Of a stretch of DNA of 32,000 nt, positions 11,503 through 31,059 are shown piece after piece (the stretch's first letter is position 1; each line of letters begins with the position of its first letter). Source of the stretch: Candidatus Nitrospira inopinata (GTDB lineage: Bacteria; Nitrospirota; Nitrospiria; Nitrospirales; Nitrospiraceae); the NCBI RefSeq assembly GCF_001458695.1, contig NZ_LN885086.1:570001-602000 (forward strand), given 5' to 3'. Under the pieces are notes generated by a model. That model did no database searches and had not been told where the DNA came from. It was given only the letters and a program-made list of their open reading frames with translations. The translations under genes were made by a program, and so were the position numbers.

Positions 11503-11521
11503 TTCGTGTAGAAGAATATCA

Positions 11522-13702: not shown

Positions 13703-13787
13703 CGATGTGGTCTTTCCGATCGAGCCTCCGCACGGACTCGCTCATCGGTCCCTGCCGGCCGTTTCACCCGAACTGTGAACGCTCCGA

Positions 13788-14540
13788 TCACCGCCAGGTG
13801 ACTTCTTCCCAATAGAGATGAACAAAGGTCTCAAAGGGAGGGAAGTTGGCTGAGTTCTGTTCTTTCGACCGAACCCACAGGTCGATCTCCATGCCGCCTG
13901 GATCCGTCTCGCCGCCCGGCAATGTCCGTGCGACGGGGTACCGAACCACGTGGGTCTGGGGATCCCGCGAGCGCTCCATCACCATGAAGTGCGCGTCATA
14001 GTCTTTGTAGAGCACCTCGTCATCCTTGTACATCGTCGCGGTGCCCCACCCGCCCAGGTACAGCCAGGTTTTCGGATAGAGAGGATCGCCGTTGTTTGAA
14101 TCGCCGTGCTCATAGATCCTGGTGGCGATGCCGCCGTCTTGAAACGGCGCTTTCTCTGTAAACCGATCGAAGACGATTCGATACCGGTGAGAACCCTCCA
14201 CAAACTCGGCCACCACCAGACCAGTGTTGGTCCTCTCGTTGATCTCGATCTCAATCGTCCCCTGCACCGGCTTGAGCCGTTTCCCCGCATAGTCGAGATG
14301 GTCCCATGGCGGCATGTCCTCCATGCTCCCGACAAGGACCGCCCGTTCCCCTCTCAAACGAAACTCACCGCTGTAATAGGGATGCTCCGTGGCTTTGAAA
14401 ATCCTGGTTCCTTCCGTCCCTTTGGGAGTTCCGAATTGCCGCTCTTGTGCCTGGACGGTCATCCAAGACCACGTCGCCATTGAACCCATTGAAACTGCTG
14501 TGGCGATCGCCCACAGGGCCACCGATATCGCGACGCGCAC
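13788..14540 (-). CDS. exported protein of unknown function (no recognisable domain)
   Basis: The frame is open to 14597, but GTG 14540 sits 6 nt after AAAGGAGG. That gives MRVAISVALWAIATAVSMGSMATWSWMTVQA-QE (signal peptide) and a 250-aa product with coding-like composition. It is convergent with the acetyl-CoA synthetase gene. Confidence 0.65.
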   Translation of the reverse strand: MRVAISVALWAIATAVSMGSMATWSWMTVQAQERQFGTPKGTEGTRIFKATEHPYYSGEFRLRGERAVLVGSMEDMPPWDHLDYAGKRLKPVQGTIEIEINERTNTGLVVAEFVEGSHRYRIVFDRFTEKAPFQDGGIATRIYEHGDSNNGDPLYPKTWLYLGGWGTATMYKDDEVLYKDYDAHFMVMERSRDPQTHVVRYPVARTLPGGETDPGGMEIDLWVRSKEQNSANFPPFETFVHLYWEEVTWR

Positions 14541-14775
14541 GGCGCACCTCCTTTGGTTGAGAGACTGGTTGGTCTTCCACAACTTTGCACCGCCCATCTT
14601 CCCATCCCATCGAAGTGACCTGCAATCGGCGGGATCAACCTGTTAAATCATACAAGAGAAACAAGGGGCCCACACGCGAACGGAGTGATTCGAATAAAAC
14701 AGCTCTCTTCTCCGTCAAAACCGACAGCCGTGAGGCATTTGCCGCGCAAGCTCCGGTCTGGTCGTCGCACACCGG

Positions 14776-15258
14776 TCAGTCTGCCATTGGATTCGGATCT
14801 TTCCGCAGAAAGGCCAGGTACATGAGCAGGTCGGCAATGTCTTGATCGGTCATGGTGAGGTCGGGAAACATGCCGGTGCCCGGATGCCCCTCTCGGATGG
14901 CGCGGGCCCGTTCTTTGTTGGTCTTGAGCCGAAGGGCGGCGGGATTGCGAAGGTCCGGCGGCGGGGGGTTGAGTCCGGCGATGAGCGCGGCCGTATCAGG
15001 TTCGAGTCTCGGCGTCCGTCCAAGATAGCCGTCGATGCCGTGGCAATAGTGGCAGGCTCCCCTGCCGTTGAAGATCTCGCGGCCCTTCGCGACATTGCCT
15101 TTGAGCCTCGGGGTCGTTGGCGAGGAGGCGGCGGCCCAGCCTGTTTCAACGGAGAAGGGGAGCAATTGCCCTCCGATCCAACAAGCGAGAATCAGTGTGC
15201 CGATGGTCATGGTGCGCCGGTGGATTCGGACGAGCCCTTTCTGCTCTCCAGGCCTCAT
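14776..15258 (-). CDS. monohaem class-I c-type cytochrome
   Basis: CHYCHG haem motif, TM/signal segment MTIGTLILACWIGG, C-terminal MTDQDIADLLMYLAFL. The start is uncertain (TTG 15279, ATG 15258 or ATG 15210). Confidence 0.8.
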   Translation of the reverse strand: MRPGEQKGLVRIHRRTMTIGTLILACWIGGQLLPFSVETGWAAASSPTTPRLKGNVAKGREIFNGRGACHYCHGIDGYLGRTPRLEPDTAALIAGLNPPPPDLRNPAALRLKTNKERARAIREGHPGTGMFPDLTMTDQDIADLLMYLAFLRKDPNPMAD

Positions 15259-15306
15259 GACGACCGTTCGTTGTCCCAACCCGTCACTCCCATACAGGTG
15301 GCTCCG

Positions 15307-15786
15307 TCAGTGATCACCGCAGCAGGCGTTATAGCGATCTTCCGGGATGGCCTCCATATCTTGAAAGACCTTCGCCCGTTCTTCTTCGCTGGTCACGTTG
15401 TCGATGGAGGGATAGAGCACTCGCTCTTCTTTCATATTGTGCGAACCAAGAACGCTGAGCAGCACCTGTTCCTCTTGATCGCTGTCGAGACTCTGCCGCG
15501 CCACCTTCTCATGGATGGATTCGAGCAGTTGCCCGATCTGCCGATGCTCATGCCGCATCACAAACGTCGGCCCGCCGTCGGTCATTCCCGTCTTCTGCTC
15601 CCACAGGGGAAACAGCAGTTCCTCCTCCCACACAATATGGCGCTGCAATCCGACTTTGAAGTCCTTGAACGCTTCCTTGGCCTTCGCGAAATCCGACCGT
15701 TTCGTCGTTTGGAATGTCTTGAACAGGTCATCGAGGCGATTGTGATCCTCTTCGTACCATGCTGTGATCGTCTTCCGTTCTCCCAT
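15307..15786 (-). CDS. hemerythrin (HHE cation-binding) domain protein
   Basis: 159 aa. Spaced His/Glu pattern (EDHNRLDDLF, LQRHIVWEEELLFP, MRHEHRQIGQLL, SHNMKEERVLYP) typical of hemerythrin-like di-iron four-helix bundles. Confidence 0.8.
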   Translation of the reverse strand: MGERKTITAWYEEDHNRLDDLFKTFQTTKRSDFAKAKEAFKDFKVGLQRHIVWEEELLFPLWEQKTGMTDGGPTFVMRHEHRQIGQLLESIHEKVARQSLDSDQEEQVLLSVLGSHNMKEERVLYPSIDNVTSEEERAKVFQDMEAIPEDRYNACCGDH

Positions 15787-15968
15787 GAGTTGCTCCCCTC
15801 TGTTATCGGTCGCGTGACCGACCTTGCGGTAACGAGCCCGCCTCCTCTTAACAGATTATGCCGGTCGCAACAAGAGCCTTTTGAGGAATGATGGCCTGCT
15901 GGGCGAGGGACATAGCTGTCAGATGACGAAGAATCTTTCAGCGGAGGAGGAGCAGATAAGCCGACCTT

Positions 15969-16481
15969 CTACTTACACTTGGCGATGGCATCAAGCTCCG
16001 CTTTGAGCTTGGCTCGATCATCGCAGAGCCGGTCGAGCGGCAATTTGAACAACGCCTCAATGCGCGCCCGCAACGTGCGATAGACCCGCTCAAACTCGGC
16101 GTCGATCTCCGCCTCTGTTCCGGTCGCTTTGGCCGGATCCTCGACACCCCAATGGGCACGCAGCGCAGGACCAAGATAAGCCGGGCAGGCTTCTCCTGCC
16201 GCATCATCACACACCGTGATCACCAGGTCCGGCGCAACCGAAAGGTCGGTCCACGACTTGCTGTGTAAGCCCTCAGTCGCAATGCCTTCCCGTCGCAACA
16301 AAGCCAACGAGCGGGGATGGACCCTGCCGGTCGGATGGCTGCCCGCGCTCATGGCGCGCCACTTTTGGCCTGCCAGCGCGTTGAACGTGGCTTCGGCCAG
16401 GATCGATCGGCAGGAGTTGCCGGTGCATAGGAACAACACAGAGCGTTGCATTGATTGTTCGTTTGGCTCAGACGGAGGCAC
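15969..16481 (-). CDS. arsC: LMW-PTP-type, thioredoxin-coupled arsenate reductase
   Basis: P-loop VLFLCTGNSCRSILAE (CX5R) plus downstream VITVCDDAAGEACP Cys pair, as in Trx-coupled ArsC. Overlaps the trxC stop by 14 nt if the GTG 16481 start is used (alternative ATG 16451). Confidence 0.8.
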   Translation of the reverse strand: MPPSEPNEQSMQRSVLFLCTGNSCRSILAEATFNALAGQKWRAMSAGSHPTGRVHPRSLALLRREGIATEGLHSKSWTDLSVAPDLVITVCDDAAGEACPAYLGPALRAHWGVEDPAKATGTEAEIDAEFERVYRTLRARIEALFKLPLDRLCDDRAKLKAELDAIAKCK

Positions 16482-16902
16482 GGACCCATCGGACGATGTC
16501 CGGCAGCCCCAGCGCCCCTGACCGCCGCGTGACCTCGCGCCCTTGGCGAAAGAGGATCAGAGTGGGGATCCCCGTAATTCCAAATCGGGCCGCCAGTTCG
16601 TGCTCCTCTTCGGTATTCACCTTGGCCAGCCGAACATGGGGTTCCAGTGTCTTCGCCGCCTGCTCAAAAGCCGGCGCCATGATCAGGCACGGCCCGCACC
16701 AGGGCGCCCAAAAATCGACCGCGACCGGAATATCATTGCGTGAGATATGGGTCTCAAAATTCGCCTTTGTCAACGTGATCGGCTGTCCCACAAACAACGG
16801 TCTATGGCACAGACCGCACTTGGGTCCTTCGCTCAGACGGGAGCCCGGCACGCGATTGATGCCTCCGCAATGGGGGCAAACGATGTGAAGCGGATCAGTC
16901 AT
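16468..16902 (-). CDS. trxC: thioredoxin 2 (Zn-finger N-terminal extension)
   Basis: 144 aa. N-terminal CPHC...CGLC zinc-ribbon, then WAPWCGPC active site and the thioredoxin fold. Confidence 0.9.
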   Translation of the reverse strand: MTDPLHIVCPHCGGINRVPGSRLSEGPKCGLCHRPLFVGQPITLTKANFETHISRNDIPVAVDFWAPWCGPCLIMAPAFEQAAKTLEPHVRLAKVNTEEEHELAARFGITGIPTLILFRQGREVTRRSGALGLPDIVRWVRASV

Positions 16903-17218
16903 CTACGTCGAGTCCCGCTCGCCGGAGCCGTTCACGAAGCCGGTCGATCTCGTTCAAGAGATCCAGCATGACCGCGACCGTCTCTATACTGGCTTCGAAG
17001 TCCCGCTGGAGACGAGCGGCTCGGCGAGCACAGACCAGGTCCGTCGCGCAGAACCGCCAGGCAGCCCGGTCGTGCCCCCGTTCGGCCAGAATTCCGACCT
17101 CAATCAATTCGGCAACCCACGTCACTTCGGCGTGACAGGCGCTTGCCAGCTCTTCGACCGTCAGCACGTCCTCGCGCCCCACGATGTTGCCCGTCAACAC
17201 GTCATCTTCCATGCTCAC
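16895..17218 (-). CDS. cbpM: chaperone modulator CbpM (MerR-like HTH)
   Basis: 107 aa, immediately downstream (6-nt gap) of cbpA. The size and helical MerR-like pattern (ELASACHAEVTWVAELIEVGIL...RLQRDFE) match CbpM. Confidence 0.75.
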   Translation of the reverse strand: MSMEDDVLTGNIVGREDVLTVEELASACHAEVTWVAELIEVGILAERGHDRAAWRFCATDLVCARRAARLQRDFEASIETVAVMLDLLNEIDRLRERLRRAGLDVDD

Positions 17219-17224
17219 ACCTCT

Positions 17225-18145
17225 TCACACACCGAGATTCTGCCGAGGATTAAACGCCAGTTCCTGCGCCATCATCCGATAGAGTTGTCGAGCACGTTCT
17301 GTGTCCGCCGGCGGCAACACCACTTCCAACATGAGATACAGATCGCCCGGCGGATCGCTGGGAATCCCACGGCCCTTGAGCCGAAGTTTCTGCCCGCTTC
17401 GCGATCCCGGCGGAATCTTGACCTCCACCACGCCGGTCGGGGTCGGCGCCTTCACGGTCGCGCCCAGCGCCGCCTCCCAAGGAGCAATCGGCAGCGTCAA
17501 CGACAGATCGTGGCCGTCCACCCTGTAGAGCGAATGGGGATCAAAATGAACCTCCAAGTACAGATCGCCGCCCGATCCCGGCGCGCCCTGGCCGGCCAGT
17601 CTGATCAGTTGGCCTTCACGGATGCCCTTGGGAATCCGGACCTTGAGCGTGTGCTCGCGGAGCGAAACTCGGCCTTGTGCGTCCAGGTCCGGAACGCGCA
17701 GCGTGATGGCGCGGGTCGCTCCATGAAAGGCGTCTTCGAGTGGAATGACGATCTTCGCGTGCCGGTCTTCTCCCCGGCCCCGCCCCGCGCCGGCGCGACG
17801 GGAAAAATTACCGAAGAGGCTGGAAAAGAAGTCGCTGAATTCGGCGGCGTCCTCCGTCGAGAATCGGCCCGGAGAAAATTCAAATCCGGCCGCCCAGTCC
17901 GGCGGCGGCGTAAATTCCTGCCCCGCCTGCCAACCGCGGCCCAGTTGATCGTAGGCGGCCCGTTTCTGCGGATCGTGCAGCACCTCGTAGGCCTCGCTGA
18001 TCTCCTTGAATCGAGCCTCCGCGCCAGGCTCTTTGTTGACGTCGGGGTGGTAGGTCCGCGCGAGCTTTCGATAGGCCTTCTTGATCTCGTCGGCCGTGGC
18101 CGTCCGCTCAACGCCGAGAATCTTGTAGTAATCCTTAAATTCCAT
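17225..18145 (-). CDS. cbpA: curved-DNA-binding DnaJ-class co-chaperone CbpA
   Basis: 306 aa. J-domain DYYKILGVERTATADEIKKAYRKLARTYHPDVN with HPD. No Zn-finger Cys repeats. C-terminal DnaJ_C beta domains. Confidence 0.9.
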   Translation of the reverse strand: MEFKDYYKILGVERTATADEIKKAYRKLARTYHPDVNKEPGAEARFKEISEAYEVLHDPQKRAAYDQLGRGWQAGQEFTPPPDWAAGFEFSPGRFSTEDAAEFSDFFSSLFGNFSRRAGAGRGRGEDRHAKIVIPLEDAFHGATRAITLRVPDLDAQGRVSLREHTLKVRIPKGIREGQLIRLAGQGAPGSGGDLYLEVHFDPHSLYRVDGHDLSLTLPIAPWEAALGATVKAPTPTGVVEVKIPPGSRSGQKLRLKGRGIPSDPPGDLYLMLEVVLPPADTERARQLYRMMAQELAFNPRQNLGV

Positions 18146-18222
18146 GACTCCCGTCGCTCCCCCGCTCGATTGTTCGCCCCATGGCTTCCGCCCGCCTTCT
18201 CGTTCGCATTATTGCTCTTGCA

Positions 18223-19893
18223 TCATTGCCATTGGGCCGCTTCCCACGTGCGGTACGACCCCGTCAAGTTCCTCGCCCGGAAACCGTGCTGACCGAGCAG
18301 GCGCGCCGCAATATACGATCGTTGTCCGGTCTGGCAATAGACGACGATGTCACGATCTCGCGGCAATTCGTCCATGCGGCTCCGCAATTCATCCAATGGA
18401 ATATGGAATGAACCGGGGATCGCCCCCCGCGCCCGCTCATCCGGCCGACGGACATCCAACACGAAGGTTGTACGGGGATCAAGCGAAGCCATCTCTCGCC
18501 ACTGTGCCACCGCCACGTCGCCCTTCACCACGTTCTGCGCCACCATCCCCGCCACATTGACCGGGTCCTTGGCTGAACCGTAGGGAGGCGCATAGGCCAA
18601 TTCCAGATCCACCAGATCGTGGACCGTCATCCCGGCTTTGAGCGCAGTCGCCAACACATCGATCCGTTTATCCACCCCTTCCCGGCCGACGGCCTGTGCG
18701 CCGAGCAGCTTCCCCGTTTCCGGCGCGAACAGAATTTTCATCGCAATCGGCTCTGCGCCCGGGTAGTAGCCCGCATGGGACCCCGGATGCAGATGAACCA
18801 CCTGGAACGGAATAGCGGCCGCACGGAGGGTCTTTTCATTGGCTCCCGTGCAGGCAGCGGTGAGGGTAAACAGCCGGAGGATGGACGTGCCAAACGTCTC
18901 AGCGTATCGAGCGGGACGGCCCAGAATGTTGTCGGCGGCGATGCGGCCTTGGCGATTGGCTGGTCCGGCCAGTGGAACCAAGGCCCATTGCCCGGTGACG
19001 CCGTCACGGACCTCGATTGCGTCGCCTACGGCCCAGATCGAGGGATCGCTGGTCCTGAGCTGTTCATCGACCCGGATACCGCCCAGCGCGCCGATTTCCA
19101 AACCGGCTTCCCTTGCCAGTGTCACCTCCGGCTTGACGCCCATGCTGAGCACGACCGTATCAGCCGGCAATCGACGCCCGTTCTTGAGGACGACAAGAGA
19201 CGATTTGGCCGGTTCTTTTTCTGAGGGGGGCTCGAACGACACGACCGGATCGTTCAGATGCAACGTGACTCCGTTCTCACGCAGCTCCCGGTGCAGCCAG
19301 GCGGCCATGTCCGGATCGAGCGGCGCCATGACTTGGGGCTGCGCTTCGACCACCGTGACCTCGTGGCCGCGTCGTCGCAATTGTTCGGCCATCTCCAGAC
19401 CGATATACCCACCCCCCACCACCACGGCCCGACAGCGACCGCACTCACTCGACCAGGCCATGATCCGTTCGACGTCGGGAATGTTCCGCAGCATGAAATG
19501 ACCGGGCCGATCAATTCCCGGAAGCGGCGGTTTGAGGGGTGACGCGCCCATGGAGAGAATCAGCGCGTCATAGGCTTCGTCATACTCCCGGCCGGTCTCC
19601 ACCTCTCGTGCACGCACGAGACGGGCCGCCCGGTCGATTCGGATCACTTCCGTCTTCACTCGCACATCCAGATTGAACCGCGCCTTGAGGCTCTCCGGTG
19701 TCTGTACCAACAAACTGTCCGGCTCGGCGATTTCGCCGCCGACGAAATAAGGGAGCCCGCAATTGGCGAACGACACGTGCGGGCCCCGCTCGAAGATGAT
19801 GATCTCGCATGCCTCGCACACCCGCCGCGCCCTGGCCGCCGCCGTGGCGCCGCCCGCGACTCCACCGATGATGATGAGGCGACGACCCATCAC
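18223..19893 (-). CDS. CoA-disulfide reductase / NADH-dependent persulfide-reductase-type flavoprotein with C-terminal rhodanese domain
   Basis: 556 aa. FAD site IIGGVAGGATAAARA. Redox Cys in SFANCGLPYF, the CoADR/Nox signature. NAD site VVGGGYIGLE. C-terminal rhodanese with active-site loop VYCQTGQRS. Confidence 0.9.
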   Translation of the reverse strand: MMGRRLIIIGGVAGGATAAARARRVCEACEIIIFERGPHVSFANCGLPYFVGGEIAEPDSLLVQTPESLKARFNLDVRVKTEVIRIDRAARLVRAREVETGREYDEAYDALILSMGASPLKPPLPGIDRPGHFMLRNIPDVERIMAWSSECGRCRAVVVGGGYIGLEMAEQLRRRGHEVTVVEAQPQVMAPLDPDMAAWLHRELRENGVTLHLNDPVVSFEPPSEKEPAKSSLVVLKNGRRLPADTVVLSMGVKPEVTLAREAGLEIGALGGIRVDEQLRTSDPSIWAVGDAIEVRDGVTGQWALVPLAGPANRQGRIAADNILGRPARYAETFGTSILRLFTLTAACTGANEKTLRAAAIPFQVVHLHPGSHAGYYPGAEPIAMKILFAPETGKLLGAQAVGREGVDKRIDVLATALKAGMTVHDLVDLELAYAPPYGSAKDPVNVAGMVAQNVVKGDVAVAQWREMASLDPRTTFVLDVRRPDERARGAIPGSFHIPLDELRSRMDELPRDRDIVVYCQTGQRSYIAARLLGQHGFRARNLTGSYRTWEAAQWQ

Positions 19894-19959
19894 TTTGCTC
19901 GCTTACACGCCCCCGGCACATAAGGCTGCCTCCGCTGCGGGCGGCCGGGTGCCGCCCAC

Positions 19960-20274
19960 CTAGCCCTCATGGCCTTTTTCCATCCTCGCTTTCATGGCCT
20001 CTCGCCCGGCCTTCACCGCCGCCTCGACGTCCGCTTTCTTTTCCGCCACGTATCGTTTGCCCCGTTCGATCATTTCATCGAGCGCGGCGCGGGCCTCTTT
20101 AGCCTTTTCAAGGATCTCTTCCTCGGTCTGTTCCGCGTAGTCTTTAATAGCCCGTCGAGTCTCCTGGCCCGACTTCGGCGTCAGTAAAATGCCGGCAACG
20201 GCTCCCACGATCGCGCCGGCGAGAAACGCGAGGGCGGTTCCCGCACCAGAATCTTCGTTGTCATAACGTGCCAT
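19960..20274 (-). CDS. YtxH-domain general-stress membrane-associated protein
   Basis: ATG 20274 after AGGAGG. LAFLAGAIVGAVAGILLTPKSGQETRRAIKDYAEQ is the YtxH signature, followed by a charged helical tail. Confidence 0.85.
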   Translation of the reverse strand: MARYDNEDSGAGTALAFLAGAIVGAVAGILLTPKSGQETRRAIKDYAEQTEEEILEKAKEARAALDEMIERGKRYVAEKKADVEAAVKAGREAMKARMEKGHEG

Positions 20275-20356
20275 GGCAATCCTCCTGGTTGAAAGCCCAT
20301 CGACTCGCACCACGACGCTGTGTCCGCGCCGTGCTTGATCGGCCCTATTGACGCAG

Positions 20357-20420: not shown

Positions 20421-20786
20421 TCAGCCGATCGGATCAAACGGAGCCAAGCTCCGGATATACGACAAGATGTCCCAGATCTCTTGATCCGACAGACGATCCG
20501 CCCATCCGTGCATGGGGCTGAAAAGGACGCCGTGCTTGATCGCGAGATACAGATCCATATCCGTCTTGATTCGTGACTTGGCCGACCGGAAATTCGCCGG
20601 AGGCACGATCAGATCTTTGATGTCGGGCCCCAGTCCGTCACCGGCGGTTCCATGGCACCCGGCACAATGCCGTTCATAGAGCACCTTGCCTTCCTTAGGA
20701 ACACTCTGTTGAGACACTGCCGGCATCGGAGCGCTCATGAGCAAGACCATGGCAACAGTCAGAACGCCGAAGAGACGTGCCTTCAT
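20421..20786 (-). CDS. monohaem class-I c-type cytochrome
   Basis: ATG 20786. Signal peptide MKARLFGVLTVAMVLLMSAP. CAGCHG. PPANFRS...MH...LSDQEIWDILSYIRSL. Paralog of 9929..10288. Confidence 0.85.
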   Translation of the reverse strand: MKARLFGVLTVAMVLLMSAPMPAVSQQSVPKEGKVLYERHCAGCHGTAGDGLGPDIKDLIVPPANFRSAKSRIKTDMDLYLAIKHGVLFSPMHGWADRLSDQEIWDILSYIRSLAPFDPIG

Positions 20787-20878
20787 GCCTATCCTCTCTT
20801 TTTGAATGACCAAATGGCCAACTATAGCTCAGAAACTGGTTCTCAGGCCCTCAGGATCATCCATCGGTGCCATTGATC

Positions 20879-21484
20879 CTACCGTTCGGCGCCCAGCGGC
20901 CGTTTGATGCTCACCGCTCCCCGCAGATCGCCGGCCTGGTACCCTGTCGCTTGATCAAAGGGATATTGCGCCTTCAGCACCGTTGTTATCTCTTCCGGCA
21001 TCCGGTCGCTTGGCCCATGGCAAAGAAGACAATGGGGCTGCACCACGATCGGTTTCATAAACCGGTAGTACCGCCCGTTCGGTTCTATAACAATCTCACT
21101 GTGCGTCATTCCCATCAGATCCTCTCCCTTGGCCGCTCGCTCGGCAAATGTGGCCAGGACCTGCTGCTCCCAGACATCGGGCATGCCGAGCAGAGGATTG
21201 CGCACCCTCGTGCCCACTCTTGTCACCCGCCAGCCCTGTTCCCGCGACAATCGGCCGGCAAGTTCCGGCGCAAGATCGGCGCAGACCTTCACGACCTCCG
21301 TCGGACCTCCCTTGGCCATCTCCCTCCTCATAGCCTCGCCGAACTGCCTGATCAACGTAGTCGCCACCTCCGAAGCGGCCTTGTCGTATTCCGCGAGCTC
21401 AGCAGCTTGGCCCGTGAGGGGCGACACCGCCAACAAAGCGAAACCAGCCACCAGAAGTGTTCCTGCTCTTTCTCGTCTAATCAT
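20879..21484 (-). CDS. DUF3365 (Tll0287-like) periplasmic haem-c PAS-like domain protein
   Basis: ATG 21484 after AGGAGGGAGG. Signal peptide. RREMAKGGPTEVVKVCADLAPELA..., single CLLCHG, and C-terminal YQAGDLRGAVSI, as in DUF3365. Confidence 0.8.
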   Translation of the reverse strand: MIRRERAGTLLVAGFALLAVSPLTGQAAELAEYDKAASEVATTLIRQFGEAMRREMAKGGPTEVVKVCADLAPELAGRLSREQGWRVTRVGTRVRNPLLGMPDVWEQQVLATFAERAAKGEDLMGMTHSEIVIEPNGRYYRFMKPIVVQPHCLLCHGPSDRMPEEITTVLKAQYPFDQATGYQAGDLRGAVSIKRPLGAER

Positions 21485-21521
21485 CCCGCCCCCTCCCTCC
21501 TGAACCACCCCACCATCTCTC

Positions 21522-22301
21522 TCAATGTTCGTGCGTGGCTCCTCCGGTGGTCACGTCTCCCTCATGGTCATCGTTCCCATGCCCTTCCTGATGACCGGCG
21601 CCTGTTCCTCCATGACTTCCCTGTCCCATACTTCCATGCTCCATGCCACCCATCCCAGACTGGTGGCTGCCACCGGACTGGCCACCGTGTCCGCCATGGC
21701 CGCCTCCGCTCATTCCGCCTCCACCCATCCCACCACCCATGCCGCCGCGCCCTCGTCCTCCCATGCCGCCCATCATGCCGCCGCCACCCATGCCGCCGCC
21801 CATTCCTCCTCCACGCTGTCTCTTGCTTTCTCTTTTCATCTGCTCACGATGGGCGCGGTCCTTTTCCCGCTGATCGGGCGTCAACAGAACCTTGGCGCTC
21901 TGCTGAGCCTTGATCGCTGAAAAGAGCAAGGCTCCCTCCGATCGTTTCAGTTGCTCGATCTTTGCCTGAATCTCGGCGAGGTCGGTCTTTTCATCCTCGA
22001 GCAGCGCGTCCAGCTCAAGTTTGGCGATTTTTCGGTCGGCCTCCAATCGCGCCTCCGTCCGTTTGTAATCCAACTGAAGGGTCTTGAGCTTGGCGATTTG
22101 CTCGGCCGTGAGCCCGAACTCCTTGGCATGTTTCAACAGATGGGTAATGTAGTGTCCACTGTGGTCTGCCTGCTCCTCGGGATCGTGGCCTCCATGCCCC
22201 ATCTGCCCATGCCCCTGATCGGCCAACGCCGGCGATCCAGTCAGGCTCACGATCAAGAGGACGCTCGCCGCTTTTTGCCATGCTTTCCTCATCGATTGCA
22301 T
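21522..22301 (-). CDS. Spy/CpxP/ZraP-family periplasmic protein with His-rich N-terminus and long Gly/Met/His-rich C-terminal tail
   Basis: Signal peptide. HGQMGHGGHDPEEQADHSGH. The LTAEQIAKLKTLQLDY...LTPDQREK (LTxxQ) repeats define the Spy/CpxP/ZraP fold. The tail is RGGGMGGGMGGGGMMGGMGGRGRGGMGGGMGGGGMSGGGHGGHGG...HEGDVTTGGATHEH. Confidence 0.75.
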   Translation of the reverse strand: MQSMRKAWQKAASVLLIVSLTGSPALADQGHGQMGHGGHDPEEQADHSGHYITHLLKHAKEFGLTAEQIAKLKTLQLDYKRTEARLEADRKIAKLELDALLEDEKTDLAEIQAKIEQLKRSEGALLFSAIKAQQSAKVLLTPDQREKDRAHREQMKRESKRQRGGGMGGGMGGGGMMGGMGGRGRGGMGGGMGGGGMSGGGHGGHGGQSGGSHQSGMGGMEHGSMGQGSHGGTGAGHQEGHGNDDHEGDVTTGGATHEH

Positions 22302-22676
22302 CGTCGTTCCCTCCCTCTTGAGCTATCGGAGTGGTACGGAACCTACCAGCCTTCTCTTCCCAATAAGAGCGTTTTCGATCACATTGGATTCAACCTCGGA
22401 GTTGCGATTCCGGTGCCGCGGAGATGATCTCATGCTTTCCATTGAACGACCGTGAAACACAAAGCAGGAAGACGATCAAGCCAAGAGGAGTGTCGAGGGG
22501 GCGTCTGAATGAAGAGAAGCCTGTGGCGCAGGAATACTCAGCCCACGTGAGTCTCGTGTGGAAAAACGCACCAGCGAAAGCAGTGAAATCAGTCCGGTCT
22601 ATCGCCCCGTGATCGAGCCGAGAGAGGCCGACAGAAGACTCCCTTCCTTTCAAGGGCTCGTCGCTCACTGACGATC

Positions 22677-23115
22677 ATGTTTCCCGCACAGTTTCGCCAA
22701 GACGGCGAGAATCTCGGCCGTGCGCGGCAAGGACGGCTCGCAGAGTTGGGCGAGCCCCGACGACCAGTCATGGATCTGAAGGCCGAGCGTTTTCGTCTGG
22801 AACGCGAGTTCGCCAAGATGCGGAGGGAGCGCGCCATCGTAAAAAGCCACCGCGTACTTTGCGAAGGCGCGGCTGCTCAGTACGCCCTGATGACGACGCT
22901 GCACCACCAGTAGTCGCTGGCCTCCGGTGTCGAGCCCACGAGATGTCCCGCAGTGGACACCATGCCTGATGCACCGCCGGCCCTCGAAGCGCCCCCAGGA
23001 GAACGCACGGTTGGAAACAGCACATACGTGCCGACTGCGGAAGGCTGGTTGTCTCTCGCCAGCATCAAGGATCGTTCACTTGCAAGGTGGTCGACCACGC
23101 GATGGCGGAACTGTT
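22677..23115 (+). pseudogene. degraded IS3-family transposase relic (OrfA C-terminus plus start of the OrfB DDE domain)
   Basis: DLKAERFRLEREFAKMRRERAIVKSHRVLCEGAA compares with ELxRLRxExxxLRxERDILKKAxAYFAxE. After a stop and frame change, NSTYVPTAEGWLSLASIKDRSLARWS compares with DITYIxTxEGWLYLAxVxDLxSRxIVGWS. It is truncated after about 23115. Confidence 0.6.
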
Positions 23116-23165
23116 TCATTCCTTCTCTGGTATCAAAAAAGCAACCGCTTCTCTCCCCTTCCCTC

Positions 23166-24248: not shown

Positions 24249-24785
24249 TCACTCATCTGCGGAGTCTTCTTGATCGTGAGGGCTTTCGGCTTGATGCCGA
24301 GGGCCCATTCTTGGCCCCATTCCCTCTCTAGGCCCCATGCCTCGACGGCCGTGTCTCTGGGCGAAGGTCCGTTCATACTGAATCACACTCCAAATCTCTT
24401 CGTCGGACAGCATGGTGCCGAATCCGACCATGGCCGTGCCGGGCGAACCGTGTTTGATCACCCAAAAAATCTCTCCCTCCGTGCGGTGTCGCCAAAATCC
24501 ATGGTGCCGGAAGTTCCTGGGCGGAGGGTTCAACTGAGCCGCCGCCGGGCCATTGCCATTCCCATCCACGCCGTGACAATTGAGACAGGTGCCCTTGCCG
24601 TGATAAATCGCCTTGCCTTGCTCGATGACCTCGGGAGAAAAGGGCACCGGGCTTTTGAGCGCCCGTGCCTCGGCCAGTTTATCGGGCGGTACTCTCGGCC
24701 GCATCAGGTGCCGTTCGGCGTCTGCCGGAGACGACGAAAGGGCGACCGTCGCCGCCAACAATAAGAAGCATGTTCCTTGTCTCAT
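24249..24785 (-). CDS. monohaem class-I c-type cytochrome with Met/Gly/Pro-repeat C-terminal tail
   Basis: ATG 24785 overlaps the upstream stop (ATGA). Signal peptide MRQGTCFLLLAATVALSSSPADA. CLNCHG. PPPRNF...IFWVIKHGSPGTAM...LSDEEIWSVIQY. Tail RGMGPREGMGPRMGPR. Confidence 0.85.
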   Translation of the reverse strand: MRQGTCFLLLAATVALSSSPADAERHLMRPRVPPDKLAEARALKSPVPFSPEVIEQGKAIYHGKGTCLNCHGVDGNGNGPAAAQLNPPPRNFRHHGFWRHRTEGEIFWVIKHGSPGTAMVGFGTMLSDEEIWSVIQYERTFAQRHGRRGMGPREGMGPRMGPRHQAESPHDQEDSADE

Positions 24786-25264
24786 GGTTCGGTCGCCTGT
24801 CCGTCCATTGCGAACGACCGCACGTAGCGTAGCACCAGCCACGCTTCTTCTTCCGTCAAAATGAGCGGAACAAAGGGAGCCATCGCCGTGCCCTTGCTGC
24901 CGTTCTTCAAAATCCAGAACAGCTCTCCATCGGTCCTGGCGGCCTGCCACTCCTTATCGGTGAAATCGCGAGGCAACGGCCCCCTCACCGTCCCCGGTTC
25001 GATGTCGCTGCCCAATCCTTTGCCGTCTTTTCCATGGCAGGTCACGCAGAATGCTTTTCCATGAAATAATTGCTTGCCCTTTTCGATCACCTCTTTGGTC
25101 GCCGGAAACGGATTGGTCCACGTTTTGACTTCCTCGATCTGATCCGCCGGCACCCGAGGCCTCAACACTGCTTTGTCCGCGCCAAAGGCTTGAAGGCTGG
25201 TCATTCCTATTGTCATCGCGCCGACCGTCATCACGAGCACCGTCGCCGAAAGATGGACGTTCAT
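24782..25264 (-). CDS. monohaem class-I c-type cytochrome (tandem paralog)
   Basis: ATG 25264. Signal peptide. CVTCHG. LPRDF...LFWILKNGSKGTAM...LTEEEAWLVLRYVRSF. Collinear with 24249..24785. Confidence 0.85.
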   Translation of the reverse strand: MNVHLSATVLVMTVGAMTIGMTSLQAFGADKAVLRPRVPADQIEEVKTWTNPFPATKEVIEKGKQLFHGKAFCVTCHGKDGKGLGSDIEPGTVRGPLPRDFTDKEWQAARTDGELFWILKNGSKGTAMAPFVPLILTEEEAWLVLRYVRSFAMDGQATEP

Positions 25265-25356
25265 TTCTCTTGCCTCTTCACACGCTCTCTCATGACCACC
25301 TGCAGAGGAGGACCGGCCTCCCGTTTCCGGCAAGCCGGTCCACCAGACCGGCCTCC

Positions 25357-25878
25357 TTACTTGTCCGCGTAGCCGGGGAACTTGTGTCCGAGCGACTGAG
25401 GATAGGTCACGGTGCCATCCGGAAATTCCTGGCCATGTTGCCAGAGGTGATAAATCACCCCATCCGTCTGGGCCGCAGCCTCCGCCACCTTGGCGGCCTG
25501 GTCATCGGGCATATCCAGGACTTTCACGCGGCCCGTCGCAATCTCGACCTTGTGATCGTGAAAATAGCGATGCCAATGGATGGCGGGCAATTTTCTCGTG
25601 AGATCCTTGGCGACAAAATATTCGACACCGACGAGCGGCGCCTTGGGATCGGTGGATTCGAACAGGAGACACTGAAGAATCTTGTCGGAAATGCCCTTGC
25701 AGTAATGGTGGAACGGCCCGCCCGGCGTCCCATCCGGCATCATATGCGGCGCCTGAACGTGAATCTCGTACCCCATCGCCGGACTGGCCGGCTCCCCACC
25801 GATAGCCATCGGCGGCATGGCCCCGATAGATCCCATGGCAACCATTGCAACAGCGGTGACGAACCCCTTTCTTATCAT
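25357..25878 (-). CDS. DUF1264 (OBAP-like) domain protein, exported
   Basis: ATG 25878 after GGAAGGGGG. Signal-like N-terminus. FHHYCKGISDKILQCLLFES...PLVGVEYFV...HWHRYFHDHKVEIATGR resembles the DUF1264 family. Confidence 0.7.
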   Translation of the reverse strand: MIRKGFVTAVAMVAMGSIGAMPPMAIGGEPASPAMGYEIHVQAPHMMPDGTPGGPFHHYCKGISDKILQCLLFESTDPKAPLVGVEYFVAKDLTRKLPAIHWHRYFHDHKVEIATGRVKVLDMPDDQAAKVAEAAAQTDGVIYHLWQHGQEFPDGTVTYPQSLGHKFPGYADK

Positions 25879-26014
25879 AACAGCCCCCTTCCTTTGTTTG
25901 CGGCATCCCGGCCCGGCCCATCCGGACTGAGAAACAGTTCCGCCTGTGACTGACCGTTGGAGACCGACAGGCTCAAAAGGATTCACTCGGGGGGCATTGC
26001 TCAACACGCCTCTG

Positions 26015-27088
26015 TCACAAATCCAATTCCACCATCTTGCGGTGGAACCGAACGACCACGTTCGGATCGGGCGCCAACCGGACCCGCGCATCCTCTTTTC
26101 CCTGATAGGGCAACAGGTTCAGGACGTAGCGAAGACTTTCAAGTCGCGCCGCCTGCTTGTCATTGGCCTGCACGATGATCCAAGGGCTGAACGTCGTATG
26201 GGTTTTGCTGAACATTTCCTCTTTGCAGCGGGTATAGGCGTCCCACAACTCTTGCGCCTTCTCATCGACCGGACTGAGTTTCCACTGTTTGAGTGGATTC
26301 CGGCGCCTCGCCTCGAAGCGTCTGGCCTGTTCGTCCTTCGAGATCGAGAACCAAAACTTGATGAGAATCACCCCGTCTTCGTAGAGCATATGCTCGAATT
26401 CCGGAACCTGCTGGAGGAACCGCTGATGTTCTTTCTTGGTGCAAAACCCCATCACCGGTTCGACCACGGCCCGGTTGTACCAGCTTCGATCGAAGAAGAC
26501 GATCTCGCCTCTGTTCGGCAACTGACGAATGTATCGCTGAAAGTACCATTGACCCCGTTCTTCATCGGTCGGCTTCGGCAAGGCCACAACGCGCATCGAG
26601 CGGGGATTCAGATGTTCGGTAAACCGCCGGATGGTTCCCCCCTTGCCGGCCGCATCCCGCCCCTCCACCAAAATCGCGATACGTTCTCCCGTCCGCTGAA
26701 CCCACCGTTGCAGCTTCACCAACTCCACTTGCAGTTGCTCCAGCTCGTGCTCGTACAGAAGTCTCTTGCGGACGTCCTGAAGATCGACGTTGCGGTTCCG
26801 CAGGAGCAGAAAAAGCCCCCTTCTCGTGTTGATCAACCGCAGATCTTCTTCTGTAAGGGAACCGGCTGGATCACCGATCGGTTTCAGCGACCCCGCCGGA
26901 GACCTTGCTAGTTGCGGGGAATAGCCGTCCCCCTCCCGAGGCATCCTCGTCGGAATCGTTTCCAGCTCACTCGCCTCCGGAGGTTGGGCCGGATGCAGGA
27001 GATCCTCGATGTCCGCCAGATCAGCCGTCAAGTCGGATGAATCGCTTCGTTTTTTCGGCTTTCCAATCGCGCGTTCGTCGGATTCCAT
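26015..27088 (-). CDS. ppk2: polyphosphate kinase 2 (single PPK2 domain) with about 100-aa acidic/disordered N-terminal extension
   Basis: 357 aa. SD GAGGAGG. Walker A VEGRDAAGKGGTI. FQRYIRQLPNRGEIVFFDRSWYNRA is the PPK2 lid/Walker B region. Confidence 0.9.
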   Translation of the reverse strand: MESDERAIGKPKKRSDSSDLTADLADIEDLLHPAQPPEASELETIPTRMPREGDGYSPQLARSPAGSLKPIGDPAGSLTEEDLRLINTRRGLFLLLRNRNVDLQDVRKRLLYEHELEQLQVELVKLQRWVQRTGERIAILVEGRDAAGKGGTIRRFTEHLNPRSMRVVALPKPTDEERGQWYFQRYIRQLPNRGEIVFFDRSWYNRAVVEPVMGFCTKKEHQRFLQQVPEFEHMLYEDGVILIKFWFSISKDEQARRFEARRRNPLKQWKLSPVDEKAQELWDAYTRCKEEMFSKTHTTFSPWIIVQANDKQAARLESLRYVLNLLPYQGKEDARVRLAPDPNVVVRFHRKMVELDL

Positions 27089-27116
27089 ACGAGGCGCCTC
27101 CTCTCAACCGCACGAA

Positions 27117-27476
27117 TCAGAACGCCACGACCTTGTCCCGCTCGGCCACCGCCTTGATGTAATCCGGCATCGCCTTGATGGAAGCCCCCTTGACCAGATC
27201 CGCCTCGCCGATTTGCCTGGCCACGGCGCACGCCCCGCACACCCAGATGGGCACCCCGGCCGCCTGCACGGCGGCGAGCAGGTCTTTTAGCGGCGAAAGA
27301 TTGACGCCGGTGACATGATCGGCCACGCCTTTCCGCGCCAACGTGACCGCCTCGTTCCACAGCCAGAGCGCCACGTCATGCCCCTGCTCTTTGGCCGTCT
27401 TCGCCGCCATGAACGGCAAGGTTGCCATCGTCGGATCGTCCGTGCCTCGACTTCCTGAGATGATGAATGTCGCCAT
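27117..27476 (-). CDS. DsrE/DsrF-like sulfur-relay family protein
   Basis: ATG 27476 after AAGGAG. 119 aa. MATFIISGSRGTDDP...GHDVALWLWNEAV...VCGAC pattern typical of the DsrE family fold. Its stop lies 28 nt before ppk2. Confidence 0.8.
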   Translation of the reverse strand: MATFIISGSRGTDDPTMATLPFMAAKTAKEQGHDVALWLWNEAVTLARKGVADHVTGVNLSPLKDLLAAVQAAGVPIWVCGACAVARQIGEADLVKGASIKAMPDYIKAVAERDKVVAF

Positions 27477-27667
27477 GAATGTCTCCTTCTTTACAAGTTC
27501 GTCACGTCGGCCCTCAATCCCCTTGGTTCCTTCATCCACCGCACGACTGACCTGACCGTGAACACCGCGCCGCCGCCTCTACAAAGGCGGACCTTCAGAC
27601 CCTGGATCAGAGTCGGGTAACCCCCTTCACCGCCCAGGGCCTGGGCCATCAGCTTTGACCATTCTCG

Positions 27668-27703
27668 CAGCAAAATGGGATGAAGTTCGCTTGCCGAGCG
27701 AAC
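27668..27703 (-). terminator. rho-independent-type terminator after the cupredoxin-like gene
   Basis: On the minus strand, GTTCGCT-cggca-AGCGAAC (7-bp stem, 27703-27685) followed by TTCATCCCATTTTGC. Confidence 0.4.
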
Positions 27704-27729
27704 CGTCCTCGAACGCGCTCAAGACACGC

Positions 27730-28224
27730 TCACCCCCCGCCGATCTCTCCTCGAGTTTCGATCACAAACAACTCGCCTTTCACCTCGGGATGGATATCAC
27801 ACCAAAGGGCGTGCCGGATACTTTCCGCCCCACCGGTCAGCGGGTCGAAATTCGACGGCGCCGTCGCAAAACGCAGCGTCATCGTCTTGCCGGCATCGAC
27901 GTGAAAGGACCGAAACTGTTTTCCCCGCACCTCGGTCCCACCTTCGACCTTCACGGGAATGTCCTTGAACAACGCCGATGCGAAGCCGTGTGTCACGGAA
28001 TCCTGGTTGCGGACGACAATGATCGTGTCGTGCGACGGCATCGTGATGCCAACCGTCTCATAACCGTGCTGGCGGTCCCTGATGGTGATTTCCACTTTTG
28101 AGGGCGGCGCCTCCATCCCCTTGGCCTGTGCATACGCAACATCTCTCTGACCGCTCCACGCCATCAACGGTACGATGGCAAGTGACATGGCGAACAATGG
28201 TGATCGGTATCGTCGAACGTTCAT
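27730..28224 (-). CDS. exported cupredoxin-like single-domain protein (atypical ligand set)
   Basis: ATG 28224 after AAAGGGAGGGG. Signal peptide. Beta-rich pattern VEITIRD...TIIVVRNQDSVTHGFAS...FHVDAGKTMTLRF...LWCDIHPEVKGELFV matches Cupredoxin_1-type proteins (His ... Cys-x2-His). Val occupies the position where the axial Met is expected. Confidence 0.6.
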   Translation of the reverse strand: MNVRRYRSPLFAMSLAIVPLMAWSGQRDVAYAQAKGMEAPPSKVEITIRDRQHGYETVGITMPSHDTIIVVRNQDSVTHGFASALFKDIPVKVEGGTEVRGKQFRSFHVDAGKTMTLRFATAPSNFDPLTGGAESIRHALWCDIHPEVKGELFVIETRGEIGGG

Positions 28225-28463
28225 GTTTCCCCTCCCTTTTGATAACGATAGCATTTCGCCCCCTCTTCTCCAGGGAACGTTCGGCCCCTTCGGACCGTGT
28301 CGGCCTCGACGTTTACTTCCCTCCTTTCCCCCATCTCCATCATCTGGGCCATGAGCGCCGGCGTTCAGCTATTTCGGCCTCGCTGAAGAGCGCGGCGGCC
28401 ATCGACGGGTTGCCCATTCCATCTATGGACCGCTTCCCTGAACTCAGGCCTCACACCACTTCA

Positions 28464-29876
28464 TCACTTCGCCAAGCTCCTGATGTATCGAATCAACTGC
28501 CACACCTGCTCATCCGTCAGCCCGGAAAACGCCATCATGCCGGTGCCGGGCGAGCCGTTTTTGATGATCCAGAACAATTGCCCGTCGGGAATATTCTCCA
28601 TCATCGCGCCGCATGTGAAGTTTCTCGGCGGCGGGACCAACGCGGCGCCCATCAGCCCCTTTCCATCGCCCTGCTCGCCGTGGCACATGGCGCAGACGAC
28701 GGGCTGCGCGGTTTTCAAAAACAGCGCCTTCCCCTCGGCGATCGCGGAAGCGGAAGGCGGCACCGGATTCGTCATGCGCAAGAACTCATCGGGAGCCTTG
28801 GCCGTCTTGCGGGGCTGTACGCAGCCGCCGGCCTCGCCAACGCTCGGCGCCGCCGGTTCGGGCGCCCCCTTGAACGTCGCCTTCAAATAGACGATCACGT
28901 CCACCACGCCCTGCTGTCCGATCGTCAGCCCCCAGTACGGCATGGTCGGCGATTTGCCGACGGCCCGGCCGCCGTGGTTGATCACGTTGTACAGATATTC
29001 CATCGGCAGTTTCTCAAACGGTATGTTGGCGTGAATGGCCGGTTTCGGCTCCAACCCAGACGCCGCGGGGCCGTCGCCCTTGCCCGTGAAGCCGTGGCAC
29101 TGGGCGCAATATTCCCTGTACAGCGTCTTGCCCCGATCGACGCTCGCGGTGGCAAACTCGGGACTCGTCCAGGGCTCGTAGTATTGAAAGTCGTTGACGC
29201 CTTGCACGGCGAGAAAGCCGATCAGCGACCGCAATTGTGCGTCGGTCGCGTCGGCCAAAAATTCCCCAGAATGGATGACGAAGTCCTGCGGATTCTGGCC
29301 GAAACGATACAGCCAGTCCGCGTTGTAGCGCCGACCGGCATGTTGTAAGGCGGTGCTCTGCGGACCTCCGATCAGCTTTCCATTCTCCTCGATCGTGTGA
29401 CAGCCGATGCAGGCATGTTCCTTGTAGATTTTCGCGCCGACCGTCACGTCGAACTTCGTCACCTTCGCCACGTCGAAAGCTCCGACCGTCACACGCGGAT
29501 CCTTGTTGTGTTCGGCAAAATAGTCGGCGAGGGCGTTCGCGTCAGACTCCGTCACCACCGGATGCTTCGATGGCACATTCGTGATGTCCCAAAGATACGC
29601 CTTGGCGTAGAGCGGCGGCTCCTTTCCGGTCAACCAACGAATGAGCCACGGTCGCTGATACTTGCTGCCGGCCCATATCAGATCAGGCGCATGGAGCTTG
29701 AACCGTGATTCAGCCGTTCCTTGCAGTCTGTGACATTGCACGCAGATCCGTTGAACAAGATCCTTGGCACGAGCATGAGACGGCTCACTTCCGTAAGAAA
29801 GATCCTGCCCCCACCCCAGTCCGACACAGAGCACCATGATTCCCGCCGCCGCATGCCCCGCTTTTCTCAGATTCAT
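28464..29876 (-). CDS. tetrahaem c-type cytochrome (four class-I-like domains)
   Basis: ATG 29876. Signal peptide. Four CxxCH motifs (CVQCH, CIGCH, CAQCHG, CAMCHG). The last domain carries the PPPRNF...LFWIIKNGSPGTGM...LTDEQVWQLIRYIRSL signature of the free-standing monohaem paralogs. Confidence 0.85.
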   Translation of the reverse strand: MNLRKAGHAAAGIMVLCVGLGWGQDLSYGSEPSHARAKDLVQRICVQCHRLQGTAESRFKLHAPDLIWAGSKYQRPWLIRWLTGKEPPLYAKAYLWDITNVPSKHPVVTESDANALADYFAEHNKDPRVTVGAFDVAKVTKFDVTVGAKIYKEHACIGCHTIEENGKLIGGPQSTALQHAGRRYNADWLYRFGQNPQDFVIHSGEFLADATDAQLRSLIGFLAVQGVNDFQYYEPWTSPEFATASVDRGKTLYREYCAQCHGFTGKGDGPAASGLEPKPAIHANIPFEKLPMEYLYNVINHGGRAVGKSPTMPYWGLTIGQQGVVDVIVYLKATFKGAPEPAAPSVGEAGGCVQPRKTAKAPDEFLRMTNPVPPSASAIAEGKALFLKTAQPVVCAMCHGEQGDGKGLMGAALVPPPRNFTCGAMMENIPDGQLFWIIKNGSPGTGMMAFSGLTDEQVWQLIRYIRSLAK

Positions 29877-29990
29877 TTTCCGTCCTTCCCCTCTTGAAAT
29901 CCCGTGGAAACCCATGAGGTCGCCGGTCGTTGCTTTGCGATTTCTCGTCCTCCCGGCTGGTGCGCGAAATCTTCTTGGGGCAATGTCTCG

Positions 29991-30854: not shown

Positions 30855-31059
30855 CGGACGACGGTCGGCACGTATTGATGCCCAACAGCGCCGTGAGCGG
30901 ACAATATTGGATCGCCCCTGTCACGAGCAACACGACTCCCACTGTCAACGTGATGCCCATTCCCACCGGAGGCAATTCCGCGAGCGCCCCGACTCCGATC
31001 AATAATAACCCCATGACAATGCGGATGGGCCTTTCAATTCCTCCGACGTTACAGGTCAT
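30841..31059 (-). CDS. DUF2892 (YgaP-type) small two-TM membrane protein
   Basis: 72 aa. NVGGIERPIRIVMGLLLIGVG...LLVTGAIQYCPLTALLGINTC matches the DUF2892 signature (NVGxxDRxxRxxxG ... CPxYxxxGxxTC). Confidence 0.8.
   Translation of the reverse strand: MTCNVGGIERPIRIVMGLLLIGVGALAELPPVGMGITLTVGVVLLVTGAIQYCPLTALLGINTCRPSSDAKK

Follow-up and report, generated by a model that had tools for sequence, protein, structure and literature searches.

The locus considered here raises the question of what a protein of the Spy/ZraP kind would do with a very long C-terminal tail of glycine, methionine and histidine. The open reading frame lies on the minus strand of the window (the whole 32-kb stretch of DNA that was analysed) and exists exactly as an earlier note on this DNA had delimited it (Table 1). 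Its product, a protein of 259 amino acids, is 100% identical to a database protein of Candidatus Nitrospira inopinata that carries the NCBI name "Spy/CpxP family protein refolding chaperone"; some sources label homologs 'periplasmic heavy metal sensor'. The protein is known already at the level of family annotation, and literature searches on this Nitrospira protein found no study. The mature chain of 232 residues comprises 56 Gly, 18 His and 13 Met, with no Cys and no Trp. All the peptides quoted in the earlier note were located in the translation, with the exception of one dropped residue, HEGHGNDDHEGD having been written for a string that actually reads HQEGHGNDDHEGD. Open reading frames of the plus strand that run over the tail (21525-21920, and a Pro-rich frame at 21643-21873) mirror the Gly/Met codons of the minus strand, and a 348-aa plus-strand frame at 20867-21913 is likewise a mirror image of minus-strand genes. 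We took these frames as shadows, because homologs and Pfam support belong to the minus-strand genes.

Table 1. Features of the gene, its product and its downstream neighbours, with positions in the window.
Feature	Residues	Positions	Strand	Basis
Whole gene, 259 codons and TGA stop		21522..22301	(-)	ORF list and sequence
Ribosome-binding site GAGGGAGGG, ending 7 nt upstream of the ATG		22309..22317	(-)	sequence reading
Candidate sigma-54 (-24/-12) promoter CGGCAC-CGGAA-TCGCA, ~100 nt upstream of the ATG		22403..22418	(-)	pattern match
Signal peptide, Sec type, MQSMRKAWQKAASVLLIVSLTGSPALA followed by DQ	1-27	22221..22301	(-)	sequence reading
His-rich N-terminal segment	28-58	22128..22220	(-)	family alignment
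Helical core	59-162	21816..22127	(-)	pLDDT, PF13801, ZraP profile, fold matches
LTAEQ motif	64-68	22098-22112	(-)	
LTPDQ motif	140-144	21870-21884	(-)	
Proximal tail block, Gly/Met repeats (GGM, MGGGM, MM), few Arg	163-200	21702..21815	(-)	
Distal tail block, His/Gly/Ser/Gln/acidic, ending THEH	201-259	21525..21701	(-)	
Tll0287-like gene (CxxCH haem-binding motif), downstream		20879..21508	(-)	PF11845, E 9e-25
Small monohaem cytochrome c gene, downstream		20421..20813	(-)	Pfam match
YtxH-like gene, downstream		19960..20313	(-)	Pfam match

The chain begins with a signal peptide in which a basic n-region and a hydrophobic core precede an A-L-A cleavage motif (ALA, then DQ), and in which reading of the sequence revealed neither a lipobox Cys nor a twin-Arg motif. 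AlphaFold places a helix at residues 3-21, within the signal peptide, and A27 and D28 are conserved in at least 90% of the family alignment. These features predict export of the protein to the periplasm via Sec. The mature N-terminus is indeed His-rich, the string HGQMGHGGHDPEEQADHSGH that had been singled out earlier being present at residues 31-50. Seven histidines (H31, H36, H39, H47, H50, H54 and H58) are each kept in at least 90% of homologs. Among them is a HxxHxxxHxxxH ladder on helix 1, immediately ahead of the first LTxxQ motif, and each of its four histidines occurs in 95-98% of homologs. The length of the N-terminal segment is also constrained, at exactly 24 aa in 84 of 88 homologs, and both the N-terminal and the C-terminal segments were found in all 120 retrieved homologs. 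Such a constrained N-terminal His array is suggestive of a defined metal site.

The core that separates the two termini is modelled by AlphaFold with pLDDT above 88. Both of its LTxxQ motifs are located at helix N-termini in the AlphaFold models, where they form helix caps, and across 90 sequences the positions L64, Q68, L140 and Q144 are invariant while T65, E67, T141, P142 and D143 are conserved in at least 90%. At a threshold of E <= 1e-3, the Pfam family PF13801 (Metal_resist, the ZraP/CnrX family) is matched by 86 of 90 homologs, the best of them reaching 2.5e-10, and a precomputed match to the same family is recorded for P0001; taken alone, the query reaches an E of 2.1e-5 and 25.1 bits, slightly under the gathering score of 29.2. 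PF07813 (LTXXQ) matches just 4 of the 90 homologs, and the score for the Spy equivalog model NCBIfam NF007769, 18.7 bits, is far below its cut-off of 174. Alignment of the family profile with E. coli ZraP (translated from NC_000913) by hhalign returned a probability of 75% and an E of 2.4e-5 over the first LTxxQ helix. In a profile search of the PDB the best match was CpxP, which with an E of 0.056 is marginal, and neither ZraP nor CnrX was among the listed matches; a PDB sequence search with the single protein yielded only low-complexity Gly-linker artefacts and a marginal match to Spy.

Structure models complement these patterns. The alignment-based AlphaFold model contains confident helices at residues 47-57, 66-138 and 142-163, the middle one a straight helix of 73 residues, and a fold search of the PDB with this full-length model gave no match, which we ascribe to the unbroken long helix. 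When residues 45-165 were modelled from the single sequence (pLDDT 87.7), the long helix instead broke at 103-107 and a hairpin formed. The top PDB matches of this second model in Foldseek were ZraP (3LAY), CnrX (3ZG1, 2Y3H, 2Y39) and CpxP (3ITF), with probabilities of 0.77-0.96 and weak E-values of 0.4-0.9. Overall, although the two models differ on the fold and the fold matches are ambiguous by themselves, membership in the CpxP/Spy/ZraP/CnrX superfamily is well supported, and the Spy/ZraP-like assignment made in the earlier note is borne out by the PF13801 matches, the alignment to ZraP, the fold matches and the NCBI name.

The tail extends over residues 163-259 and reads RGGGMGGGMGGGGMMGGMGGRGRGGMGGGMGGGGMSGGGHGGHGGQSGGSHQSGMGGMEHGSMGQGSHGGTGAGHQEGHGNDDHEGDVTTGGATHEH. 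With 48 Gly (48%), 11 Met and 10 His among its 97 residues, it is the long Gly/Met/His segment that had been claimed. AlphaFold predicts it to be disordered, with a mean pLDDT below 50 from about residue 165 to the end, and it displays MxxM and MxxxM spacings together with HGG units. It contains no Cys, which makes very tight Cu(I) or Zn sites unlikely. Measured from the DQREKDR motif, homolog tails are 48-116 aa long (median 71); Gly makes up 45% of them, Met 11.5% and His 10%, and the longest belong to the N. inopinata group. Relatives have neither lost the tail nor frameshifted it, the two sequence outcomes that the earlier note had named as refuting its reading: it is present in frame in 120 of 120 retrieved homologs, and the C-terminal end is QHQH, EHQH or THEH (H-x-H) in 106 of 109. 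The order of the blocks is fixed among the 120 homologs, Met/Gly first and His/Gly/acidic thereafter, with Met at a median relative tail position of 0.25 (Arg/Lys likewise proximal) and His at 0.75 (acidic residues likewise distal). The tail is conserved in kind, with composition and block order kept across the genus Nitrospira, and not in sequence.

The DNA that encodes the tail had been described as near-repetitive and as a likely hotspot of slippage. Repetition there is, but of a degenerate kind: the units reported by Tandem Repeats Finder, with periods of 15 and 27 nt, match at 69-75%, the 45-nt direct repeats share 64-78% identity, exact repeats reach at most 12 nt, and all four Gly codons are in use. 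When the gene is compared with its four closest relatives, all indels are multiples of 3 nt (3, 6, 9, 12 and 15) and all fall in the tail, the 279-nt core showing none. For example, a 15-nt unit coding EGHGS is present in two copies in three of these four relatives and in one copy here. An identical 259-aa protein is encoded on 28 contigs, and no length variant occurs in its 90% cluster. Since the repeats are degenerate and this cluster is without a length variant, the tail-coding DNA is not a rapidly slipping tract and does not behave as a fast contingency locus. The hotspot proposal consequently retains the in-frame variation of tail length among relatives but is weakened by the degeneracy of the repeats and the slow accumulation of indels, and is weakly supported. 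From species to species tail length changes, while purifying selection maintains its frame and composition.

The distribution of the family is centred on one genus. The homolog search found at least 358 sequences at E <= 1e-3 among 8000 candidates scored, and all organism names on the 120 listed homologs of this set are Nitrospira. A genome scan gave 65 loci, 64 of them from Nitrospira or Nitrospirota and one from a Latescibacterota MAG. A search with the core alone against 1.84 billion cluster representatives retrieved 1225 proteins at E <= 1e-3. We surveyed tails in 102 of the top 150 core matches, namely those having two LTxxQ motifs; among these, 71 carry at least three His before the first LTxxQ and 15-23 have a Met- or His-rich tail, with a median tail of 17 aa against about 95 aa here. 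The Gly/Met/His type of tail accordingly recurs in the family, the N. inopinata example lying at the long extreme. An LTXXQ protein, uncharacterised, is also abundant in the proteome of another nitrifier, Nitrosomonas europaea (PMC5960693).

Gene order around the locus recurs among the 65 loci of the genome scan. The Tll0287-like gene occupies the same position in 20 of them, a small cytochrome c gene lies downstream on the same strand in 39 and a YtxH-like gene does so in 41; upstream, cytochrome c genes (37-39 loci), DsrE (29) and PPK2 (24) recur. No terminator-like site was found between the gene and the next three co-oriented genes, and the Tll0287-like gene is probably co-transcribed with the chaperone gene. 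The gene is part of a conserved cluster of cytochrome c and stress genes. The wider window is rich in the latter, which comprise HSP20, Usp, DnaJ (accompanied by a MerR_2 regulator), thioredoxin, PPK2, a low-molecular-weight (LMW) phosphatase (ArsC-like) and a CoA-disulfide-reductase-rhodanese (CoADR); it also contains a Grx-like gene, and one related Nitrospira locus also has Cu/Zn-SOD, Dyp peroxidase and OsmC. Pfam scans of the 32-kb window, in which all open reading frames of at least 400 aa were accounted for, detected no ZraSR-like two-component system, enhancer-binding protein or metal-efflux gene, and an Rfam scan of the whole window detected no RNA family and no riboswitch or leader. 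An open reading frame of the upstream spacer (22677-22913, plus strand) was considered as an IS3 transposase remnant and set aside, there being no Pfam support.

The candidate sigma-54 promoter upstream of the gene was located by positional scoring. It fits the GG-N10-GC core of sigma-54 promoters, with C in place of T at two consensus positions. Sites scoring at least 8/11 were present in 25 of 51 orthologous upstream regions, mostly at a similar distance from the gene, as against 8% of shuffles and 3 of 51 reverse-strand controls. The spacers vary among orthologs (GGCGC-AAGAT-TCGCA, GGCAT-CAGAA-TCGCA and others), and in about half of the loci the motif is absent or unrecognisable. In a global alignment of the 51 upstream regions, the ribosome-binding site aside, almost no column attains 70% identity. 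We grade the site as a candidate only, because relatedness of the loci inflates the signal of 25 in 51. Another cytochrome c gene of the window is immediately preceded by a better sigma-54 match, TGGCAC-ACTGC-TCGCA, which is conserved at the orthologous site of a distant Nitrospira genome.

We consider it reasonably probable that the protein is a ZraP-like periplasmic, ATP-independent stress chaperone and metal buffer of the PF13801 superfamily, a reading we favour because the layout recurs in E. coli ZraP, there with a tail of 22 aa. Metal binding by the tail and the N-terminus would follow from their composition and from the analogy with ZraP. Zn(II), Cu(II) or Ni(II) could find a defined site in the N-terminal His ladder. 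The Met block, with its thioethers at MxxM and MxxxM spacings, would bind soft ions such as Cu(I), whereas the distal block with its HGG-type units would take up Cu(II), Zn(II) or perhaps Ni(II), ions to which the H-x-H end would be suited as well. The disordered tail as a whole may act as a multivalent ligand array of lower specificity. An oligomeric state like that of ZraP is probable for the protein, which would sequester metal in the periplasm and keep hold of unfolded clients, thereby protecting the enzyme-rich periplasm of Nitrospira. Transcription would probably run from the sigma-54-type promoter through the Tll0287-like, cytochrome c and YtxH genes. We put forward much more tentatively, as a doubtful though specific elaboration, that the tail, fused to a chaperone and encoded within a conserved cytochrome c cluster, is a modular and evolvable array in which the Met block serves Cu(I) and the His/Gly block serves Cu(II), Zn and possibly haem, its capacity being tuned by in-frame gain and loss of repeats. 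Such an array might meet needs specific to Nitrospira, such as buffering of copper or haem or absorption of oxidants (e.g., chlorite) near the nitrite-oxidising machinery.

The tail could be explained in other ways. That it is a functionless low-complexity product of slippage that is simply tolerated would accord with the degenerately repetitive DNA and with tail lengths that differ between species, but this is essentially excluded by the conservation data: the tail persists in 120 of 120 homologs with frame, block order and the H-x-H end conserved, indels are in frame only, and the identical protein recurs on 28 contigs. Alternatively, the Gly/Met block could be mainly client-handling in the manner of GroEL, a flexible and mildly hydrophobic extension that raises holdase or foldase efficiency, the histidines being secondary. 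The GroEL tail, (GGM)4M, assists folding, and GGM/MGG units are here attached to the core of a chaperone family in a segment predicted to be disordered. We nevertheless regard this as unlikely: without ligation of metal or haem it is difficult to account for the distal block, for the H-x-H end and for the seven N-terminal histidines, and in ZraP, the nearest relative that has been characterised, termini of this sort serve for zinc (PMC9175090).

It seems no less improbable that the Met-rich tail is above all a sacrificial, repairable sink for reactive oxygen species, chlorite and hypochlorite, with a periplasmic methionine sulfoxide reductase re-reducing the oxidised Met. Nitrospira NXR can form chlorite from chlorate. 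In E. coli, chlorite induces Spy, the activity of which is controlled by the oxidation state of its Met residues (PMC12503329), and the redox genes close to a related locus (Cu/Zn-SOD, Dyp peroxidase and OsmC) and in the window (Trx, Grx-like and CoADR) point the same way. However, no msrP/msrQ-like gene is found among the annotated neighbours, 11 Met per chain make a small sink, and the His blocks are left unexplained. The idea that the protein serves mainly in signalling, as an accessory of the CpxP, ZraP or CnrX kind whose His sites sense metal and which modulates a kinase or anti-sigma factor encoded elsewhere, has comparably poor prospects in our judgement. To our knowledge, Spy is the only characterised member of PF13801 and PF07813 without a signalling role, the 'heavy metal sensor' label of homologs and the RefSeq name of ZraP, 'signaling pathway modulator', are in line with it, and an H-x3-H pair stands just before the first LTxxQ, as the metal ligands of CnrX do. 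Yet neither the 32-kb window nor three long related loci (L001-L003) contain a kinase, response regulator, ECF sigma or anti-sigma gene, and the conserved neighbours are cytochromes c and YtxH. The GroEL-like tail, the Met oxidant sink and the signalling accessory are not mutually exclusive.

Nitrospira oxidise nitrite, and comammox species such as N. inopinata perform complete nitrification; the enzymes used for this are exposed to an enlarged periplasm and require Cu, Fe/haem and Mo. If the reading as a ZraP-like chaperone and metal buffer is true, a genus-wide chaperone bearing Met/His arrays would be a plausible part of metal and oxidative-stress homeostasis in Nitrospira, and a test case of how disordered metal-binding tails extend ATP-independent chaperone function. 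The basic principle is known already from ZraP, the tail here being an expanded version of a known type.

It is useful to set the protein beside known systems. The SilE/PcoE sponges, the Met motifs of CueO and Ctr1 and the HGGG octarepeat of the prion protein are disordered segments in which Met binds Cu(I)/Ag(I) and His binds Cu(II). They share MxxM/MxxxM spacings or HGG units with the Nitrospira tail and are functional analogies; homology to them was not detected, none of these families appeared in the Pfam scan at E values up to 1, and the Nitrospira tail is far richer in Gly than segments of the SilE/PcoE, CueO, Ctr1 or prion type. GroEL resembles the protein in bearing Gly-Gly-Met repeats at the C-terminus of a chaperone but differs in fold, compartment and length, and the canonical GroEL tail lacks a His block.

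Within the superfamily, Spy and CpxP (PF07813) are likewise periplasmic stress proteins, and in them too two LTxxQ motifs cap helices, there of a hooked hairpin such as the single-sequence model predicts for the Nitrospira protein. The spacing of about 72 residues between the motifs of the Nitrospira protein presumably agrees with that of CpxP. Two LTxxQ motifs are documented for CpxP (PMC9219993). Unlike the Nitrospira protein, Spy and CpxP are without long metal-type termini. CnrX, the Ni/Co sensor of Cupriavidus (PDB 2Y39, 3ZG1; PF13801), is matched at fold level with a probability of 0.84-0.96 and a TM-score of about 0.55-0.6. We take the H-x3-H pair that precedes the first LTxxQ to correspond to metal ligands of CnrX, and the position before the second LTxxQ to be a further CnrX ligand position, at which the protein has neither His nor Met. 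CnrX is membrane-anchored and partnered with CnrY and CnrH, whereas the Nitrospira N-terminus ends in an A-x-A signal-peptidase motif and reads as cleavable, and no such partners are found among the Nitrospira neighbours.

The closest comparison is with ZraP (E. coli b4002; Salmonella STM4172, PDB 3LAY; PF13801), the gene of which is sigma-54 dependent; a sigma-54-like candidate motif also lies upstream of the Nitrospira gene. ZraP and Spy are Zn-binding, ATP-independent periplasmic chaperones, and ZraP has two zinc-binding domains (PMC9175090). Common to both proteins are a signal peptide, a His/Gly N-terminus (with the HGGHG motif), a helical core with LTxxQ (a hairpin in ZraP and, by the single-sequence model, putatively here) and a Gly/Met/His C-terminal tail with His near its end, the ZraP tail ending in HW and the Nitrospira tail in H-x-H. 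The E. coli tail, GAGMGMGYGGCGGGGHMGMGHW, is of the same type and much shorter, as had been claimed, counting 22 aa against 97 aa here (4-5 times longer and in two blocks). Further differences are the two LTxxQ motifs here as against one in ZraP, the absence of Cys from the Nitrospira protein, unlike ZraP, and an identity of only about 25% over 52 aligned columns. Moreover, zraSR-like genes adjoin none of the Nitrospira loci examined (the window and L001-L003). Because this linkage was looked for and is absent, we regard the protein as probably ZraP-like in its working and not as a ZraP ortholog. Its architecture repeats that of ZraP with an extreme tail and a second LTxxQ motif.

Only 20 of the 65 loci carrying chaperone-gene homologs have a Tll0287-like gene, whose product bears a CLLCH haem-binding motif, between the chaperone and the cytochrome c gene downstream of it; this marks the Tll0287-like gene as a lineage-specific addition to the chaperone/cytochrome c cluster. 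Separately, the chaperone gene is duplicated in some Nitrospira MAGs, with both paralogs on a single contig (L018 and L056 on JABMDK010000012.1; L033 and L046 on JBFWZD010000005.1), at distances ranging from a few kb to ~58 kb.

On the other side of the chaperone gene, the upstream spacer spans 860 bp, whereas the corresponding gap in three other Nitrospira measures only ~80-350 bp. No Pfam-recognisable ORF was found in this spacer, which contains a terminator-like hairpin. Long ORFs, one of them Pro-rich, also run antisense to the tail-coding DNA (21525-21920, 21643-21873 and 20867-21913, all on the forward strand); these were rejected as genes, being mirror artefacts of the GGN/ATG-rich coding sequence on the opposite strand.

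Positions of the features discussed, in window coordinates unless a locus is named
Feature	Position	Strand	Remarks
Tll0287-like protein gene	20879-21508	-	
His ladder HxxHxxxHxxxH	22128-22163	-	residues 47-58; helix 1, shortly before first LTxxQ
Spacer 5' of chaperone gene	22302-23165		
Terminator-like hairpin	22641-22656	-	
Sigma-54-type motif TGGCACactgcTCGCA	31562-31577	-	10/11 consensus positions matched; strong
Orthologous sigma-54-type site TGGCACACGGCTCGCA	L002:1390-1405		distant Nitrospira genome

A small cytochrome c gene (ORF 31149-31601, reverse strand) probably starts ~35-50 nt downstream of the strong sigma-54-type motif, and in the distant Nitrospira genome the orthologous site precedes the orthologous cytochrome c gene by 44 nt. 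The occurrence of the motif at both orthologous sites hints that a sigma-54 regulon may take in periplasmic cytochromes.

Stress and redox genes are densely packed in the window (6971-20313 and 24249-31601), and much of this neighbourhood is syntenic across Nitrospira. It includes genes for HSP20, Usp, YtxH, PPK2 and a MerR_2 regulator adjoining a DnaJ/CbpA-like gene, together with a Grx-like gene, an ArsC-like LMW phosphatase, Trx2, a CoA-disulfide reductase-rhodanese, DsrE, DUF1264 and six c-type cytochrome genes.

Within the chaperone itself, 95-98% of Nitrospira homologs keep any given one of the four histidines of the N-terminal ladder; in the wider family, the fourth is present in roughly half of the members. 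The ladder occupies a position similar to that of the H-x3-H metal ligands of CnrX, the related Ni/Co sensor of Cupriavidus.
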